Positions 6,825-14,938 of a DNA stretch of 32,000 nucleotides are shown in pieces. The notes under the pieces are model-generated. The model was given only the letters and a program-made list of their open reading frames with translations. It was not told the origin of the DNA and made no database searches. Location: positions 30,001-62,000 of the forward strand of contig VHBL01000003.1 of the NCBI GenBank assembly GCA_016871995.1, written 5' to 3'. The translations under genes and the position numbers were made by a program. The stretch is from Nitrososphaerota archaeon. Its GTDB lineage: Archaea; Thermoproteota; Nitrososphaeria; Nitrososphaerales; UBA57. Each line of letters begins with the position of its first letter. Positions within the stretch are counted from its first letter, which is position 1.

Positions 6825-7781
6825 TTAGCTGAGCCCAAATTCAGCAAGTTTCTTGTTGTTCTTCTCAATGCCTTTTACTTCTGCTTCAGTAGGGAAGAAG
6901 TATTTTTCGTTCCACCCTTCAGGAAGTTTCTCAGGCGACTTACCCGTTAAAGCAAGTACGCCCCATATCTTTCCGATAGATGCTTGACCCTCTTTCGATG
7001 CAAGGAAGTCAAGGAAATGCCTAGCGGAGGGGCTATCCTCTGCATTTTTCATCAACCCTGCGGTTGTAAACGTGTACAGCCTAGGAAGTTCCTTTACCCT
7101 GAGCTGCTGCAAATGTGCCCCTTCCTCTTTAAGGCGATAGAAAGCCAGCGAATAGGCTGCCAGAGCGATAGACTTCTCACCAGCCTCTAAAGCCTGAAGC
7201 AAGTGATCTATGCAGTCGTATGTCTGCGGTTTGATTTTACCAACAATATTCAAAACCTCTTTCCATCGCCGTTCTCCAAGAATCCTCTTTAGCGCACAAA
7301 GATAGTATGCAGTAAGGTTTCCAGCAGAGGACGCTAGGACAGCTTGACTTCCAATCTTGCTTCTAAACCCGTCTGCAAATTCCTTTATGCTGTTAGGAAC
7401 GTTCCCATTAAGCCGTTCGCTGTATACAGGAAACATCGAAGTTATCCCAATGGCCATCCATGTCTTCGAACTGTCTTGGGCAAATTGAGGAAAAGAGTTT
7501 GAAGGAGAGTATCTCGCTAGAAGCCCTCTATGCTTCATCTGGAGCAGAAGATAATGCGGAGCAATTACAATATCAGCGGTAGGCAGACCAGCCTTGATCT
7601 CTCCTTCAACTCTTTTCAAGACGGGAAATGGATGATCATCCAAATAAGCCGGAAACTCTTCAAGAGTGTACTTTCTGCGGAATGTCCACAGGAGATCGCT
7701 TACTCCCCTTCTTACTCCCATGGACGCATAAATAGTTGTACGCCTTCCCTTTGTCTTGACCATCTGCATGCGCAGAAACAT
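6825..7781 (-). CDS. type-II periplasmic-binding-protein fold, Fbp/AfuA-like solute-binding protein homologue without a signal peptide
   Basis: TTIYASMG...ADIVIAPHYLLLQMKHRGLLARYSP...ARHFLDFLASKEGQ matches the iron(III)/AfuA-type SBP pattern. There is no hydrophobic N-terminus or lipobox. No permease or ATPase gene is adjacent. Confidence 0.7.
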   Translation of the reverse strand: MFLRMQMVKTKGRRTTIYASMGVRRGVSDLLWTFRRKYTLEEFPAYLDDHPFPVLKRVEGEIKAGLPTADIVIAPHYLLLQMKHRGLLARYSPSNSFPQFAQDSSKTWMAIGITSMFPVYSERLNGNVPNSIKEFADGFRSKIGSQAVLASSAGNLTAYYLCALKRILGERRWKEVLNIVGKIKPQTYDCIDHLLQALEAGEKSIALAAYSLAFYRLKEEGAHLQQLRVKELPRLYTFTTAGLMKNAEDSPSARHFLDFLASKEGQASIGKIWGVLALTGKSPEKLPEGWNEKYFFPTEAEVKGIEKNNKKLAEFGLS

Positions 7782-7853: not shown

Positions 7854-8774
7854 ATGCACACGATAAAGCACGGCTACTATGCACCCTATTTTTACTGGAT
7901 GTTTCCTTTAATCGTAGCTAATGAAGAAGCAATCTTCCCTAAAGTTGGCGTTGATTTCAAGGTTACAGACATTGTAGCAGGAGGACAGCCTGAAAACAAG
8001 GCAGATTGGTACCTCGAAGCATTTCAAAAGGGAGTACGCGACTTTTACTTCTGCTGCGCTTGGCAGGGAGTTTATAGTACTAACACGACTAGGAAGGGAA
8101 GAATAATAGCAGCCGCTCCATCAACTCTTCTCAAAACCTTTGCAATCTACACGAAACCTGATTCTGACGTGAAGAGCGTCTACGATCTTGGGAAGAACAG
8201 GTATGCCGTTGCGGTTAACAAGTTTGCAGACGCGCATTACGTTACGCTCAAGAACATGAGGCAGTTTCTGCCTGATTCTCAGATACAGCTTGCACACCTT
8301 GGCGGAGTAGAACAGTGTTTCAGAGCCCTCTTGGATGGCAAGGTCAAGGCAGCTACTCTTGCAGGACCTTATGCTGACTTTGCGCAGTATATAGGGATGA
8401 GGAGAGTATTGGGCCTGTCGAGAGACGAGCCTACATTCATAGTTATGGATGAAACATTCGACAAGGAAACAGTTTCAGTATTTTTGAAAGCGGTCAATAT
8501 GGCGATCGCAAGGATAAGGGAAAATCCAGAAAGATACAGGGATAGATACTACAAAGAATTCGAAATGGTGGTGAAGGCTTTCCTCCAAGAACTCGCGCCG
8601 AATCTCAAAGGATTCAGGGAGAGGATGGAGATTCCGGTCTGGGCAGACTTGAGGCAAGTCACTAGGCAAGAGTTCGAAACTATAAGGAACTTTATGGAGG
8701 AAACAGGCCTGATAACTGGGAAGACTACTTATGAGGAGCTCGTCAACCCAGAATCTCCCATACTGGCAAAGTAG
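7854..8774 (+). CDS. NMT1/THI5/SsuA-like binding-protein-fold protein, cytoplasmic
   Basis: HGYYAPYFYWMFPLIVANEEAIFPKVGVDFKV and a later LLDGKVKAATLAGPYADFA are typical of NMT1/SsuA-like domains. No signal peptide. Confidence 0.65.
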   Translation: MHTIKHGYYAPYFYWMFPLIVANEEAIFPKVGVDFKVTDIVAGGQPENKADWYLEAFQKGVRDFYFCCAWQGVYSTNTTRKGRIIAAAPSTLLKTFAIYTKPDSDVKSVYDLGKNRYAVAVNKFADAHYVTLKNMRQFLPDSQIQLAHLGGVEQCFRALLDGKVKAATLAGPYADFAQYIGMRRVLGLSRDEPTFIVMDETFDKETVSVFLKAVNMAIARIRENPERYRDRYYKEFEMVVKAFLQELAPNLKGFRERMEIPVWADLRQVTRQEFETIRNFMEETGLITGKTTYEELVNPESPILAK

Positions 8775-8843: not shown

Positions 8844-9785
8844 ATGTCAAAAACATTCAGGTTGAAGGTAAAGAACTCCTACATCCCTTGGTCATTCCTT
8901 GACATAATTGCCAAAGACGATGGATTATTCGCAAAGAGAGACATTTCAATAGACTTCTTCAGTGTAGGCAAGGCCGAGTCAGAACCATCGGACAAGATAA
9001 GGTGGTATTCAGACTTGGTGAAGACGGACAAGCTTGATGCCTATTCTGTATGCGCTTGGGGGGCGATAGACAGGCTCGCTGGTGCAGAGACACAGAAGGA
9101 GAAGATACTTGCAGCCTCCACATCTTCGTCATACGCCTTTTCAATAATAGTTCAGCCGGGTTTAGGAATAAAGACGGCAAAGGATCTAGCGGAGATACCA
9201 ATAGCGGTGAACATGAAGACTGGTTCCCATTATTGCGTACTTAGCGACCTTGAAAGGGCACTACCTTACGACAGCATCAAAGTTGTTCACGGAGGGGAAC
9301 CACAGAGCAGGCTAAAAGGACTGATTGATGGAAAGTTCCAAGCAGTTGCATTGATAAGCCCATATACAGAACTTGCGATAAAACTTGGATATCCTAAAGT
9401 TGCAGAGACCAAAACTGTCGATGTTCTAGCATTCGTTGCCAGAGACGACATACCGATGGACACTATGGTAAAGTATCTTGATGCTCTAAACGAGGCTTCA
9501 AAGCAGCTCAGGGCCGATCCCGAGAAGTACAGGAATCTGTACATTAGGACATTCAGGGAAACCTTCGCTGGATATCCTGAAGATCTCAGGGCCAGAGTGA
9601 ACAAGGTTATTGACCAGATAGGCTCGACGGTGCCGATAACCACATGGGGAGAACTAGTTTCTTATCCAAAGGAGTCCTTCAACCAGCTTAGCACATGGAT
9701 GAGCAAGCACAATTTGCTACAGTCAAAGGTGGACTATGAGAGTCTTGTGCTGGAGCAGCCCTTAGCAAAGGCAAAGGGCCATTAG
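8844..9785 (+). CDS. NMT1/THI5/SsuA-like binding-protein-fold protein, diverged paralogue of 7854-8774
   Basis: Same architecture and length (313 vs 306 aa). It shares CAWG/CAWQG, LIDGKFQAVALISPYTELA vs LLDGKVKAATLAGPYADFA, and PEKYRNLY vs PERYRDRY. No signal peptide. Confidence 0.65.
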   Translation: MSKTFRLKVKNSYIPWSFLDIIAKDDGLFAKRDISIDFFSVGKAESEPSDKIRWYSDLVKTDKLDAYSVCAWGAIDRLAGAETQKEKILAASTSSSYAFSIIVQPGLGIKTAKDLAEIPIAVNMKTGSHYCVLSDLERALPYDSIKVVHGGEPQSRLKGLIDGKFQAVALISPYTELAIKLGYPKVAETKTVDVLAFVARDDIPMDTMVKYLDALNEASKQLRADPEKYRNLYIRTFRETFAGYPEDLRARVNKVIDQIGSTVPITTWGELVSYPKESFNQLSTWMSKHNLLQSKVDYESLVLEQPLAKAKGH

Positions 9786-10630
9786 CGAGGAATAGCGTCG
9801 TAAAACTGTTCGGCTCCAGAATACTTGTTGTAAAGGAGCCGAAAGTTTCTTTCTACTATCATTTTTAATTTCCAATCTTCACTCCCTTCCAGTATCGGGA
9901 TATCCTTAGTACCCTCCTTTACCCGCTTACGCACTTCTGTATCGAACTTTCTCAAGTAACTTGCAAACGTCCCAACGTGCTCTTTTGAGGAGATAGTCCC
10001 ATGCCCGGGGACTATCTGGTCAATTCGCATCCCCTTGATTTCTTCTAGCCTGTTAAGCCATGCAGGCAAGTTAGCATCTTCAATGTTCGGATGGTAATTT
10101 ACTGACAGCACATCCCCAGAAATCAGAACTTTGTCATCAGGCAATAGTACCATAGTATCTCCATCTGTATGTGCCCCTTTTTTGGGGTGAATTATCTTGA
10201 GAGTCTTTTCTCCAAAATATTCTACGAAACCTTCTTTGTACGTTCGCTGAGGAGGAGCTATTGAGATTCCATCCAGATCTTCTTTGAGCTTTCTGCCTAA
10301 CCTTCTATATGCTTTAATTCTTTCTTCGCCTCTCCCAATAATTCTCGTCTTGCAATTCTCATGAGCAAGTATTGTGGCTTCAAAGACGGAGTTTCCGAAG
10401 ACATGGTCTGAGTGATCGTGCGTATTTATCACAAGTTTTACAGGTTTATAGGTTCTCTTCTTGATCTCCTTGAGAAGCGAATAAGATATCTTGTTCGTGA
10501 AACCTGTATCAATCAGAATTACCCCATCATGAGTGACTATGAAGGTCTGGTTTGCACCCCAGCCGTCGTGGATGCTGTCGCTCTTTCCGAGATTTACAAA
10601 AACGTTCTCTGCAACTTGCTTAACCGGCAT
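9782..10630 (-). CDS. metallo-beta-lactamase-fold hydrolase
   Basis: H-x-H-x-D-H motif (NTHDHSDH), then GAHTDGD, ISGD and PGHG. The start lies 3 nt after the TDO stop, and the 3' end overlaps 8844-9785 by 4 nt. Confidence 0.85.
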   Translation of the reverse strand: MPVKQVAENVFVNLGKSDSIHDGWGANQTFIVTHDGVILIDTGFTNKISYSLLKEIKKRTYKPVKLVINTHDHSDHVFGNSVFEATILAHENCKTRIIGRGEERIKAYRRLGRKLKEDLDGISIAPPQRTYKEGFVEYFGEKTLKIIHPKKGAHTDGDTMVLLPDDKVLISGDVLSVNYHPNIEDANLPAWLNRLEEIKGMRIDQIVPGHGTISSKEHVGTFASYLRKFDTEVRKRVKEGTKDIPILEGSEDWKLKMIVERNFRLLYNKYSGAEQFYDAIPR

Positions 10631-10633
10631 GTT

Positions 10634-11461
10634 CTATGCTTCGCTGATTTCAGTTCGCGCCTCCCAGAGTACTGGGAAGAACCTTTTTGTCAGTGATGTT
10701 TGAAGATAAGAAACTCCAGATATGTTGAAGGCATAAGGTCCCACAACGTCCTTGACAATTTCAGAACCTGTTCCCTGCTTCCTGCCTATTACGCGCTCCA
10801 CCATTGCTATATGATGGGTTCTCCAGAGCCAGAAATTCTTATCATATTCCATTAACACTTCAGCAAGCTCTTCAACTTCTGGATACTTTTTGCCAGAAAA
10901 GAGCCTTACGAGGGCCTTAAGCTCCTTCTTGTAGAGTTTTCTCTTAGAGTCAGCGTTAATATCGAATTTATAGCGTTCAAGAACTTCTCTAAAACCATCC
11001 CACAATGAAGGGGACTCGAACCGTTTCAGCAGTTGCTCATAATCAGATTCGTCATCTTCATGCATCTTTAGGAATTTCTCATCCTTTTGACCAGAAACGA
11101 ATTCCAATTCTCTGAACTGCAAAGATTGAAAGCCACTAGCAGGTCTGAGCAGAGTACGGAACTTCAAGAAGTCTTTTGGCCTTATCGTTTCCAATACTGT
11201 GATTTGCTGAATAAGGACCTTCTGAACTTCCACGACCCTTCGTATCAGCCTAGTAGCTTCAGGTACATCTCCTGCCAGCATGTGCGAAATAGCAGATTCG
11301 AGTTCATTGAGCATCAGTTTGAACCATAATTCGTATGTCTGGTGGGCAATTATGAACAGAACTTCGTCTTGCTGCCTCGGCTTCGAAATTAGCTTCTGCA
11401 GACCAAGCAGGTGATCTATATGCAGATATCCTTTGTAGGAGAGAGGCTTCTTTGCTGACAA
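10634..11461 (-). CDS. kynA: tryptophan 2,3-dioxygenase (heme-dependent, bacterial TDO type)
   Basis: YLHIDHLLGLQ, the distal-His motif IIAHQTYELWFKLML, SGFQSLQFRELEF, the proximal-His region WRTHHIAMVERVIGRKQGTGS, and FPVLW. Confidence 0.85.
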   Translation of the reverse strand: MSAKKPLSYKGYLHIDHLLGLQKLISKPRQQDEVLFIIAHQTYELWFKLMLNELESAISHMLAGDVPEATRLIRRVVEVQKVLIQQITVLETIRPKDFLKFRTLLRPASGFQSLQFRELEFVSGQKDEKFLKMHEDDESDYEQLLKRFESPSLWDGFREVLERYKFDINADSKRKLYKKELKALVRLFSGKKYPEVEELAEVLMEYDKNFWLWRTHHIAMVERVIGRKQGTGSEIVKDVVGPYAFNISGVSYLQTSLTKRFFPVLWEARTEISEA

Positions 11462-11472
11462 TTTTTGCTCTT

Positions 11473-12840
11473 TTACTTGTTGACCCAGGGGTAAAGCTCT
11501 TTTAATCCATTAAGAGCCTTCTTTATTGCCTTAACATCGGCATCATTCTTCTCCATATGTCCCTCTTTATATTCCCTGTAAGCCTCTAAATCTAGCAGTC
11601 CATGTCCGCAAAGGTTGAACAGAATGACTTTCTTTTCACCTGTCTGCTTGCACTTCTTTGCTTCGTCGATAACGCCTTTTATCGCGTGAGCAGTTTCTGG
11701 AGCGGCTACTATGCCTTCAGTACTTGCAAAGAAAGCCGCAGCGTCAAATATCTCCGTCTGGTTGTATGCTACGACATCGATCTGCTTTTCATGGTACAAT
11801 AAGCTCATTGATGGTGCAGCCCCGTGTACTCTTAACCCTCCAGTATGGATTGGTGGAGGTACAAAATTATGACCTATGGTGTACATTCTGAAGAGTGGGC
11901 TAGTTCTCATGACGTCCGAATGATCATACAGATATTCGCCTTTAGTAAACCTTGGTGCTGCGGTCGATTCTACCCCGAGGAACCGAACATCCTTTGGAGC
12001 TCTCTTGCTGATCTTGTCATAGTAATAGGGCCAGAATATGCCAGAGAAGTTGCTCCCTCCTCCCACACAGCCTACTACAATATCGGGGTAGTCGCCGTAA
12101 GGTTCAAACTGTTTCTGCGCTTCCAATCCGATCAAAGTTTGACTTGCAAGAACGAAGTTCATTATGCTCCCTACAGCATTTCTTGCCTTTTCATCACGCA
12201 TGACATCCTCTATAGCCTCGCTTTTGGCTATGCTCATAGATCCTGGGCCGTCAGGATCGTCTTGCAGAACATTCTTTCCAACAGAAGTGTTTGTGCTAGG
12301 GCTAGCGAAGATTTGCGCACCCCATGCCTCCGCTAGGTCTTTGCGGTAGGGCTTCTGATCGAAAGCCGCTCTTGCCATATAGATAGTGCATTTTACTCCG
12401 AATAACTTGCAGCCAAATGCAAGTGCCGTGCCCCACTGTCCAGCAGTAGTGCTGGTAACTAATCTTTCAATCCCTTCCTTCGCTGCGTAATATGCCTGAG
12501 CAACTGCAGCATTTGCCTTATGCGATCCTGGGGGACTTACGGATTCATTTTTGTAATAGATTCTTGCAGGCGTGTTTAGAGCTCTTTCAAGCCTTCTCGC
12601 TCTAACAAATGGCGTAGGCCTCCAAATCGAGTATATCTGCCTCAGCTCTTCGGGGATCTGGATGAACCGCTCGTTCGAGTATTCGTGTCTTGCAAGCTCT
12701 CTAATGAAAAGCCTATGCAGGATGGCTTTGTCTGCGACCTGCCTTGTCTTTGGATCAATTACAGGCGGAAGTTTCTTGGGTAAATCGGGAACTATGTTGT
12801 ACCACTGTGCTGGTATTGACTCTAATGCAGTAGCTAGCAT
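11473..12840 (-). CDS. trpB2: tryptophan synthase beta chain-like PLP enzyme, long TrpB2 type
   Basis: 455 aa with the TrpB2-type N-terminal extension. PLP-lysine motif PPGSHKANAAVAQAYYA, plus GCVGGGSNFSG. No trpA is nearby. Confidence 0.85.
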   Translation of the reverse strand: MLATALESIPAQWYNIVPDLPKKLPPVIDPKTRQVADKAILHRLFIRELARHEYSNERFIQIPEELRQIYSIWRPTPFVRARRLERALNTPARIYYKNESVSPPGSHKANAAVAQAYYAAKEGIERLVTSTTAGQWGTALAFGCKLFGVKCTIYMARAAFDQKPYRKDLAEAWGAQIFASPSTNTSVGKNVLQDDPDGPGSMSIAKSEAIEDVMRDEKARNAVGSIMNFVLASQTLIGLEAQKQFEPYGDYPDIVVGCVGGGSNFSGIFWPYYYDKISKRAPKDVRFLGVESTAAPRFTKGEYLYDHSDVMRTSPLFRMYTIGHNFVPPPIHTGGLRVHGAAPSMSLLYHEKQIDVVAYNQTEIFDAAAFFASTEGIVAAPETAHAIKGVIDEAKKCKQTGEKKVILFNLCGHGLLDLEAYREYKEGHMEKNDADVKAIKKALNGLKELYPWVNK

Positions 12841-12860
12841 GGAAAAGTCTTCTTTAGAGT

Positions 12861-12870
12861 CTATTAATAG
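12861..12870 (-). promoter_or_regulatory. TATA-like box upstream of trpB2 with leaderless-type spacing
   Basis: On the minus strand, CTATTAATAG lies 21-30 nt upstream of the trpB2 ATG (12840). This fits an archaeal TATA box about 26 nt from a TSS at or near the start codon. Confidence 0.3.
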
Positions 12871-12898: not shown

Positions 12899-14938
12899 TT
12901 ACTGTTGAAGTATCATTCGCAGCTTTTCAGGATCAGATGTTGGAAGATCGCAGGTAAAGTTCTTGCAGACATATGCGGTAGTTTCTCCCTCCAACTGGAT
13001 CCTGTCTTTCAGCAAAGGTATCATTTCAGAATAATCCTTCCCTGCAGGCTGAAGAGCTACTATGATATCTGGCCTGTAAGTTTCCGATATTATCCGAAGC
13101 ATCCTTTTTGTAATTTCTTCACCCAAACTACCAGATATAGCAACTTCTTTTGGCGGATTCAAAAGATAATCAAGTGCTATTAGCCAGTTAGTCAATCCTG
13201 TAGGATAGTTTTCCATCTGTGTACTTACCGATCTTAGAGCTTTCTCTGTAGATTTTGCAAACTTTGTATCTCCCGTATATGCGAACAGTTTCAGCATGAT
13301 CTGAGCCGCCGCAGACCCCCCAGAAGGGAGAGCCGAATCGAAGGAACTCTTGGGTCTTGCAATTAACTGCTCATGGTCGTCTGATGTGTCGTAATATCCT
13401 CCATCGTTCTTGTCTTCAAAATGATCGATTATCATGTTCGCCATCTTTTTTGCTTCTGCTAGCCATCTTGGGTTAAATGTGCTCTGATACAGTTCGATTA
13501 ACCCATCAGCCAAGAAAGCATAATCTTCCAAATATCCGTTGATCTTTACAGTTCCATCCTTCCATACATGCAATAACCTTCCCTCTCTCTCCATGTTGCC
13601 CAGAATGAATTCTGCATTATTTTCTGCTGCATTTAGGTAATCTTCCCTGCCCAGAACTCTTGCAGCCTCACTCATCCCCGATAGCATCAACCCATTCCAC
13701 GATGCAAGGACCTTGTCGTCCCTTCCAGGTTTTATGCGCTTGTTCCTTTCAGCAAGAAGTTTCTTTCTGCACTCTGTCATTGTCTCTTCGAGTTTCTCTA
13801 CAGAACTCTTCAGCATTGATGCTACTCCGGAAGGCTCTGTTTGAATGTTCAGGATGTTCTTCCCTTCAAAGTTACCCTCCGCTGTAACTCCGTAGTATGC
13901 GCAGAAACTTTCAGCATCAGTTCCAAGAATTCTCTCGATCTCTTGTTTTGTCCAGACGTAGAACTTGCCCTCTTCCCCTTCGCTGTCTGCATCCTGAGTA
14001 GAATAGAACCCTCCATTCGCATCTGTCATCTCCCTTAACACATAGTCAATAGTTTCTTCTACGATCTTTCTGCTGATGGGGTTCTTGTTTATCTGATAAT
14101 CGTGAAGGTAGACTCTGGACAGAAGGGCATTGTCGTAAAGCATCTTTTCGAAATGGGGAACTAGCCATCTGCTGTCAACCGAATAGCGGTGAAAACCTCC
14201 CCCAAGATGATCGTAAACTCCTCCTTGGGCCATTTTCAATAGTGTAAATTCGACCATCTTGTTGGCTTGGGCAAAGCCCTGCCTTCTTCCTATTCTGATC
14301 AGCAACTCCAACGCCGTCGGTTGGGGAAATTTAGGTGCCCTTCCAAAACCACCATTTATTCTATCAAAACTGCTGTCTAACTGTAAAAATGCGACTTCGA
14401 TTGGAAGGTTATTCAGTTCTGCTTTTTCAACAGCTATCTTTTCGTTGAGCCTTTTGTGAAGCTGCTCTGCATCTTTCATAACTTCTTGCTTTCTTGCCTT
14501 GTAAGCTTCGCTTATTGCAGCTAATACTCTTTTGAACGATGGCAGTCCATGGCCCTCATCTGGAGGGAAATACGTACCTCCGAAGAAAGGTTTCCCATCC
14601 GGAGTAAGAAAAACTGTCATAGGCCAGCCACCAGAACCTGTCAGAGCCTGAACGGCTTCCATGTAGACCGTATCCAGATCAGGTCTTTCCTCTCTGTCTA
14701 CCTTTATACTGACAAAATTGTCATTCATTATCTTTGCACTCTCTTCATCTTCAAAAGATTCCTTCTCCATGACGTGACACCAATGGCAAGCAGAATACCC
14801 TATGCTGAGCAGAATCGGCTTATCCTCTTTTCTGGCCCTGGCAAAGGCCTCCTCACCCCAAGGATACCAGTCTACAGGGTTATGCGCATGCTGAAGCAAA
14901 TACGGCGAGGTTTCTTTTGCAAGACGATTAGCATGCAA
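12899..14938 (-). CDS. thioredoxin-domain protein, DUF255/YyaL (SSP411-like) family with an (alpha/alpha)6-barrel C-domain
   Basis: [13 protein letters not shown]...[16 protein letters not shown] at the N-terminus, then GGFHRYSVD and DNALL motifs typical of the family. 679 aa. Confidence 0.85.

Follow-up and report, generated by a model that had tools for sequence, protein, structure and literature searches.

What does a tryptophan-cleaving enzyme do in an archaeon when the gene directly upstream of it looks like one that makes tryptophan? The question is raised by a stretch of 32,000 nucleotides from a Nitrososphaerota archaeon (contig VHBL01000003.1, positions 30,001 to 62,000, assembly GCA_016871995.1; hereafter the window), in which three minus-strand genes in a row encode a paralogue of the tryptophan synthase beta protein TrpB2, which we call TrpB2*, a tryptophan 2,3-dioxygenase (TDO) and a metallo-β-lactamase-fold hydrolase (MBL). 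A sequence-only reading of this window had proposed that TrpB2 makes tryptophan from indole, that TDO opens its ring and that the MBL protein deformylates the product. Our analysis points elsewhere: the cluster would consume tryptophan, and a kynurenine-type product is predicted to arise through TDO, MBL, TrpB2* and three binding-protein-fold proteins, a reading that we hold tentatively and regard as close to an even call. The conserved unit is a five-gene core, made up of TDO, TrpB2*, PBP_B, PBP_C and SBP_A, with a variable shell consisting of the MBL hydrolase and an aminotransferase. The members found in the window are as follows.

11473-12840, minus strand: TrpB2*, the TrpB2 paralogue, 455 residues, ATG start (open reading frame (ORF) list and models NF009057/TIGR01415)

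10634-11461, minus strand: TDO-family haem enzyme, 275 residues, TTG start (ORF list and PF03301)

9782-10630, minus strand: MBL-fold metallohydrolase, 282 residues (ORF list and PF00753), accessory cluster member

8844-9785, plus strand: PBP_C, NMT1/SsuA-like binding-protein fold, 313 residues, core member

7854-8774, plus strand: PBP_B, NMT1/SsuA/Thi5 fold, 306 residues, core member

6825-7781, minus strand: SBP_A, FbpA/ThiB-class binding-protein fold, ~305-318 residues, core member

The coordinates and strand of the three genes first described were reproduced from the ORF list and the sequence, from which gaps of 3 nt between MBL and TDO and 11 nt between TDO and TrpB2* were read. The translations contained the reported motifs, namely AHQTYELW and WRTHHIAMVERVIG in TDO, GSHKAN in TrpB2* and the H-x-H-x-D-H of the MBL protein in the form HDHSDH, and Pfam and NCBIfam agreed with the reported families. 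The TTG start of TDO agrees with its homologues, which begin M-S-A-K-K at the same place. A comparison of gene neighbourhoods, which the sequence-only reading had called for, showed that a TrpB2-type gene lies directly upstream of TDO in 14 distinct thaumarchaeal contigs and that MBL adjoins TDO in 8 of them; because of this recurrence, the TrpB2-TDO-MBL adjacency is not due to chance, and the functional unit is conserved. Homologues were named as Nitrososphaerales or Thaumarchaeota metagenome-assembled genomes (MAGs). PBP_B, PBP_C and SBP_A had been described as merely flanking the three genes, a description that has to be given up, since all three were present at every thaumarchaeal TDO locus with enough flank; PBP_B and PBP_C form a tandem pair, and the gene order varies between lineages with the gene set retained. 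The TrpB2* and TDO reading frames, separated by the 11-nt gap in the window, overlap by ~13-16 nt at three other loci (L006, L008 and L014), which suggests translational coupling.

The distribution of TDO in these archaea is patchy (3 of 41 related genomes), and among the loci compared the partner set was confined to them. Among the bacterial TDO loci compared (n ~62; 41-47% identity; mostly Acidobacteriota), none had the thaumarchaeal partners, the sole partner-like exception being an ordinary TrpB2 gene 3 kb from TDO at locus L054, and 36 of the 62 had a kynureninase gene within 4 kb of TDO. In the archaeal loci, the cluster was joined by two non-orthologous class I aminotransferases that are 26-30% identical to each other, so that an aminotransferase was recruited twice, independently. 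Type 1 occurs at L006, L110, L111 and L113, and type 2 lies between TDO and MBL in genome G008 and at L115; the source assembly (G000) contained an orthologue of neither. Their presence would agree with a transamination step that turns kynurenine into kynurenate in some lineages, but does not prove one. In the literature, including the Gagatemarchaeaceae genome paper, we found no description of this cluster, nor any paper on Thaumarchaeota that deals with TDO, kynurenine or the present TrpB2 clade.

Two kinds of altered cluster copy were also seen. At L113 (6915-6983), a 23-residue remnant of the TDO C-terminus stands directly 5′ of an intact MBL gene and aminotransferase gene, with no TrpB2 or binding-fold genes, and this locus is a decayed copy of the cluster. 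On the contigs of L112 (2.06 Mb) and L114 (244 kb), the TDO, SBP_A, aminotransferase and TrpB2 genes are split into fragments, which are probably assembly frameshifts rather than pseudogenes.

The first step of the reading is assigned to TDO. It matched PF03301 at 1e-50 with 173 bits (cut-off 34.9), and HMMER paired its residues with those of xcTDO (structure 2nw7) as Y9/Y24, Y12/Y27, L13/L28, F36/F51, H40/H55, F98/Y113, R102/R117, S109/S124, H217/H240, G230/G253 and T231/T254. The pairing covers every xcTDO residue known to us to contact haem or L-tryptophan (L-Trp): two histidines, one proximal and one distal, an Arg/Thr/Tyr set for the amino-acid moiety, in which Arg and Thr bind the carboxylate and the ammonium group, and the aromatic wall (roles as reportedly given in Forouhar 2007). 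Across 15 clade members, these haem and L-Trp residues showed little or no variation. To judge from them, the protein looks like a competent L-Trp dioxygenase, and it probably acts on L-Trp or on a near analogue whose amino-acid moiety is free. A total of 2373 TDO homologues was found. Nine thaumarchaeal TDOs were included in a maximum-likelihood tree, where they made up a single clade (support 100/98) whose long branch lies among bacterial sequences, a placement in keeping with one origin in this lineage. The direction of transfer is unrooted in the tree.

Whether the products of TDO feed a familiar route was judged from the source genome, an assembly of 1.55 Mb in 11 contigs that is 96% complete. 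It carries a complete trpE-G-D-C-B1-A operon, with both TrpB1 and TrpA, as well as nadA (409 bits in a profile search), and kynureninase was not found in a search of this 96% complete genome with the TIGR01814 profile. With nadA in place and no kynureninase found, there is good support for the view that the cluster serves neither nicotinamide adenine dinucleotide (NAD) synthesis nor the catabolic release of anthranilate. The genome search proposed earlier thus yielded the trp operon and nadA, and it also yielded a single cyclase-family gene of the KynB type (PF04199; C1:736447-737088), unlinked to the cluster. The earlier statement that kynurenine formamidase and kynureninase are both missing accordingly extends to the genome for kynureninase and holds for the window alone as regards a formamidase.

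We then considered the MBL protein, which is the other candidate for the formamidase. It matched PF00753 at 8e-22 (78.5 bits against a cut-off of 22.7) and had no match to the cyclase-fold family PF04199 in Pfam, and its ligands H71, H73, D75, H76, H154, D173 and H210, i.e., the H-x-H-x-D-H motif with the distal His, Asp and His, were invariant in 19 homologues. Assignment to a characterised subfamily, which had been named as a check, did not result from the models tested: the MBL protein fell below the cut-offs of the nearest named models, the SoxH-related TIGR04559 (145 bits against 280) and TIGR04558 (140 against 300), and of the subclass B1/B2 lactamase model NF033088 (80 against 200). The MBL gene adjoins TDO at 8 of the 12 loci with downstream flank (the window, L002, L003, L115, L110, L111, L112 and L114, with an aminotransferase gene between the two in L003 and L115), at 43-82% identity and in at least three lineages, and it is missing at the other four (L005, L006, L008 and L015). 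Among the 41 relatives its orthologues occurred in three TDO-bearing genomes only, and even in the decayed L113 cluster the MBL gene still stands beside what is left of TDO. A restriction of MBL to the family of the window was considered and rejected, as orthologues adjoin TDO in other lineages. KynB is a binuclear Zn amidase that its own authors likened to class B lactamases (PMC4243253), and deformylation chemistry by the MBL protein is plausible for that reason. Position, co-occurrence and this chemistry together make it a possible, if somewhat doubtful, N-formylkynurenine formamidase where it is present. The earlier assignment of this role to MBL survives in that the gene recurs directly after TDO with its metal site intact, and it fails as a general rule, the gene not having been found in five core-bearing genomes; given these five, MBL is an accessory and not an obligatory step.

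The strongest competitor to that assignment, which we nevertheless rate as rather unlikely, is that the MBL protein is not the formamidase but hydrolyses a later intermediate, for instance an amide, lactam, ester or thioester that TrpB2* and the binding-fold proteins would have produced, or repairs a side product, with deformylation left to the PF04199 protein or to spontaneous loss. Three things speak for this: MBL was not found in the five core-bearing genomes, the models closest to it describe class B lactamases or SoxH-related hydrolases of uncharacterised function and include no formamidase, and a PF04199 protein was present in 8 of the 8 TDO-bearing genomes searched. However, the cyclase family occurs in 26 of the 41 relatives irrespective of TDO, for which reason the unlinked PF04199 protein is a possible but non-specific formamidase, whereas MBL is strictly linked to TDO among the relatives, its gene in every case following TDO either directly or after an aminotransferase gene set between the two. 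Counts of PF04199 genes were 5, 5, 4, 2 and 1 in the MBL-less cluster genomes G041-G045, and one each in the MBL-bearing G000, G001 and G008; the larger number where MBL is missing might be a complementary pattern, a weak one since the lineages differ.

The gene upstream of TDO decides whether tryptophan is made at this locus. TrpB2* scored above the cut-offs of both family models (NF009057, 619 bits against 366; TIGR01415, 571 against 519) and keeps the pyridoxal phosphate (PLP) lysine, K108 within G-S-H-K, along with the phosphate-binding GGGSN loop. Where the TrpB2 structures 6hul and 4qys read T-E-T-G-AGQWG, TrpB2* reads T-S-T-T-AGQWG. The Glu replaced here is the catalytic, indole-activating residue that corresponds to StTrpB E109. 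At position 130 the window protein has Ser, and the 12 TDO-linked copies read all have either Ser or Asn; the equivalent residue is Glu in 6hul and 4qys, in the TrpB1 of the source genome and in 14 of the 14 ordinary TrpB2 proteins compared (12 of the 15 TrpB2-type genes from relatives, L013 and the actinobacterial L054). Among 104 TrpB2 representatives at 50% identity, 80 keep the Glu, about one quarter being without it. The substitutions specific to the TrpB2* clade include P109A, T111A, E130S/N, G132T and Y338V, the flank of the PLP lysine reads HK-A-N-A as opposed to HK-P-N-T in ordinary TrpB2, and identity across lineages is 66-72%. In engineered TrpB variants, loss of the Glu redirects the aminoacrylate to non-indole nucleophiles, and one such protein, the engineered tyrosine synthase TmTyrS1 (PDB 8egy), was among the structure matches of TrpB2*. 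Thermotoga TrpB activates indole with E105 and cannot form tryptophan without it, and plant tryptophan synthase beta-like (TSB-like) proteins, allosteric pseudoenzymes in which this Glu is lost to Ala (Ser or Pro in Solanaceae), make no tryptophan (PMC12727527). Since a Glu essential for tryptophan formation is missing in all 12 TDO-linked copies, conversion of indole to tryptophan by TrpB2* is unlikely. TrpB2* has kept both its PLP lysine and its phosphate loop, and its clade is 66-72% identical across lineages; on these grounds we read it as a PLP enzyme that is still active but uses another nucleophile, and not as a tryptophan synthase. To annotate genes of this clade as 'tryptophan synthase beta' is probably an error.

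These results bear directly on the proposal of a make-and-cleave module, i.e., a route of indole salvage or detoxification in which TrpB2 makes tryptophan from indole and serine or O-phosphoserine, TDO opens it, MBL deformylates the product to kynurenine and the binding-fold proteins capture indole. The conserved TrpB2-TDO-MBL order, the family scores and retained PLP lysine of TrpB2*, the ordinary TrpB2 gene 3 kb from a bacterial kynA at L054 and the aromatic-rich clefts of PBP_B and PBP_C, which would suit indole, all fit it. Nevertheless, the indole-activating Glu that ordinary TrpB2 and TrpB1 keep is missing from every TDO-linked copy read, its loss abolishes tryptophan synthesis in the plant proteins (PMC12727527), the genome already has TrpB1 and TrpA, and the kynureninase search of the source genome turned up no enzyme to take carbon or nitrogen out of kynurenine. 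We therefore consider the route improbable: the cleaving half of the module is in keeping with the conserved active-site residues of TDO, and the making half is not in keeping with those of TrpB2*. That TrpB2* is instead a non-catalytic or regulatory pseudoenzyme that binds tryptophan or serine and modulates TDO or TrpA, with the binding-fold proteins as ligand buffers or sensors, strikes us as very improbable, for despite the precedent of the plant TSB-like proteins and a frame overlap (e.g., at L006 and L008) that would suit stoichiometric co-production, it keeps the PLP lysine, the phosphate loop and the carboxylate-binding T-x-AGQ at a level of identity expected of an enzyme, and out-of-operon-type TrpB2 is not, to our knowledge, known to bind TrpA.

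TrpB2* can also be set beside its characterised relatives. With the TrpB2 proteins represented by 6hul and 4qys, O-phosphoserine-dependent synthases or indole-salvage enzymes, it shares the hidden Markov model (HMM) family, ~50% identity and the same PLP-binding elements, but its clade is fixed for Ser or Asn at the Glu position, for Thr at G132 and for HK-A-N-A. Enzymes of that O-phosphoserine-dependent or indole-salvage kind are described in Busch 2014 and Hiyama 2014, as these are cited in PMC12727527. With the plant TSB-like proteins it shares the loss of the same Glu, and unlike them and the engineered variants it represents a natural archaeal clade of the TrpB2 type that is operon-linked to TDO. 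Further divergent TrpB2 paralogues were seen in related archaea at L106 (G032:C15:1400-3100), L108 and L107 (G027:C5:174200-177300). One divergent paralogue has Leu for the catalytic Glu (T-L-T-G-AGQWG), and in a tandem TrpB2 pair one copy has a strongly altered Lys and Glu region.

The three binding-protein-fold proteins complete the core. PBP_B gave a weak PF09084 match, and its AlphaFold2 (AF2) model (predicted local distance difference test (pLDDT) 89) matched SsuA, TauA, ThiY, Thi5, PqqT and DszB in Foldseek; of its 113 homologues, all those named by source were Nitrososphaerales, Nitrososphaerota or Thaumarchaeota. PBP_B and PBP_C are paralogues (26-31% identity) across which K49, C68, S90, N122 and H128 are invariant together with many aromatic residues, and in this fold the invariant residues fall in loops that line the cleft. 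SBP_A matched PF13531 at 3e-9 and FbpA structures at ~1e-5, contains the invariant motifs E-F-P-x-Y-L-D-D-H-P and D-C-I-D-H-L, and retains one of the two FbpA iron-binding tyrosines; its AF2 model, built from 8 sequences, had a pLDDT of 58, too poor for a fold search. None of the three has room for a signal peptide, as no more than 5-15 residues separate their domains from the earliest possible start codon (the domain of PBP_C starts at about residue 5), and no permease or ATPase was called in the loci with gene tables or in the window ORFs scanned beside the cluster. By these signal-peptide and transporter criteria, we infer that they are cytoplasmic and not substrate-binding proteins of ATP-binding cassette transporters. 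Their residue patterns would suit binding of, or catalysis on, an aromatic ligand. Enzymes of this kind have a precedent in Thi5, the hydroxymethylpyrimidine phosphate (HMP-P) synthase, and in the desulfinase DszB, with which PBP_B shares the fold (Foldseek E 1e-11 to 1e-9), the lack of a signal peptide and invariant Cys, His and Lys in cleft loops; however, PBP_B is only 12-16% identical to them, is known by fold and not by catalytic motifs, and may be a mere binder.

Together, these data allow a pathway to be drawn for the tryptophan-consuming cluster, in which the individual steps differ in strength. In the first, for which there is good support in the conserved residues, TDO would draw on the L-Trp made through the ordinary trpEGDC-B1-A operon and open it to N-formylkynurenine. 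In the second, with moderate support from position, co-occurrence and chemistry, the binuclear metal site of MBL would remove the formyl group to leave kynurenine; where MBL is missing, a cyclase-family hydrolase or slow spontaneous loss could take its place, or N-formylkynurenine could be used directly. In some lineages the product might then be transaminated. The third step is speculative: TrpB2* would form aminoacrylate from serine or O-phosphoserine and add it to a non-indole nucleophile, most simply an arylamine or quinoline product of the preceding steps. Equally speculative is the part of the binding-fold proteins, which may hold or process aromatic intermediates, their clefts being rich in aromatic residues with invariant Cys, His, Lys and Asp. 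The end product would be neither NAD nor anthranilate.

Several observations weigh against this scheme. TDO scored 217.6 bits on the equivalog model TIGR03036, below the cut-off of 390.7, and the thaumarchaeal TDO clade carries a private insert of 10-13 residues straight after the G-T-G of the substrate-gating loop, which the bacterial homologues are without; given the score and the insert, the substrate may be a tryptophan analogue. Part of the function of the lost Glu might be taken over by the Ser or Asn of TrpB2*, or by a clade-specific Asp or Asn at position 221. Because MBL was not found anywhere in the five core-bearing genomes (G041-G045), deformylation by MBL is not universal. The cluster contains no oxidase or ligase that would indicate a particular product, and it is guesswork which nucleophile TrpB2* uses and what the binding-fold proteins do.

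A bolder form of the reading, which we regard as decidedly improbable, would make this a new pathway in which TrpB2* attaches a serine-derived 2-amino-2-carboxyethyl group to an arylamine or quinoline of the kynurenine pathway, yielding a new amino-acid-type metabolite or cofactor precursor, with the binding-fold proteins as enzymes or carriers and MBL as a third, non-orthologous type of formamidase. A quinolinyl-alanine resembling the PqqC substrate, leading to a product like pyrroloquinoline quinone (PQQ), was considered as the end product and gained no support from co-occurrence with PqqC-like genes: whether or not TDO was there, they turned up in 12 of the 14 other genomes of the family, and they were present in only 2 of 5 other cluster-bearing genomes. 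In the 26 genomes from other families of the order there were none.

The nearest known arrangement is the bacterial kynA-kynB-kynU set, which has the same TDO family with matching haem and substrate residues and a metallohydrolase as neighbour, and bacterial kynA proteins are the nearest TDOs outside the thaumarchaeal clade, at 41-47% identity. In contrast to it, the thaumarchaeal cluster is without kynureninase, its hydrolase is of the MBL and not the cyclase fold and is optional, and its partners are TrpB2* and three binding-fold proteins, unseen in the ~62 bacterial loci. The initial kynurenine steps are thus placed in a new conserved enzymatic context. This matters for the non-ammonia-oxidising Thaumarchaeota of soils and lakes, which are abundant and uncultured and whose metabolism is mostly inferred: here is a lineage-specific operon that joins one confidently assigned O2-dependent step to four to six partners. 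It offers a candidate third, MBL-fold, kynurenine formamidase and three cytoplasmic binding-protein-fold proteins that may be enzymes. In addition, the loss of Glu in TrpB2* is the same change that engineers make for new amino acids, so that its native nucleophile is of interest for biocatalysis.

Two further features lie upstream of the cluster in the window.

12899-14938, minus strand: DUF255 protein, 679 residues (PF03190 at 4e-80)

12869-12862, minus strand: TATA-like box TATTAATA, centred ~25 nt 5′ of the trpB2 ATG (consensus resemblance)

The DUF255 protein, a thioredoxin domain with a six-hairpin-like C-terminal part, was confirmed at its reported distance of 58 nt from TrpB2*, but it adjoins the cluster in this window alone and in none of the other loci, and was rejected as a cluster member. 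The TATA-like box was likewise located where it had been reported, as a consensus-like match only. The source DNA was contained in 13 sequencing runs, all of them lake-water metagenome DNA from 2018, with no RNA run listed. The Archaeal_AmoA profile of Pfam had no match in the source genome, but none in the control either, and this is not evidence of absence.

Finally, the source genome holds three PqqC-like genes (C1:268578-269255, C7:15098-15775 and C1:753607-754272), one of them above the TIGR02111 cut-off, and a profile search of it found no PqqE above 40 bits; with PqqC-like genes and no PqqE found, one may ask if these archaea produce or complete a PQQ-type cofactor at all, and by what means. 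A PBP_B paralogue of 27-29% identity (G000:C1:274592-275551) has the NMT1 fold, like the PQQ-binding PqqT. In many genomes of the family, with counterparts in G001-G013, this paralogue lies 6-9 kb from a PqqC-like gene, and the two may form a conserved neighbourhood of PqqC and a binding protein.

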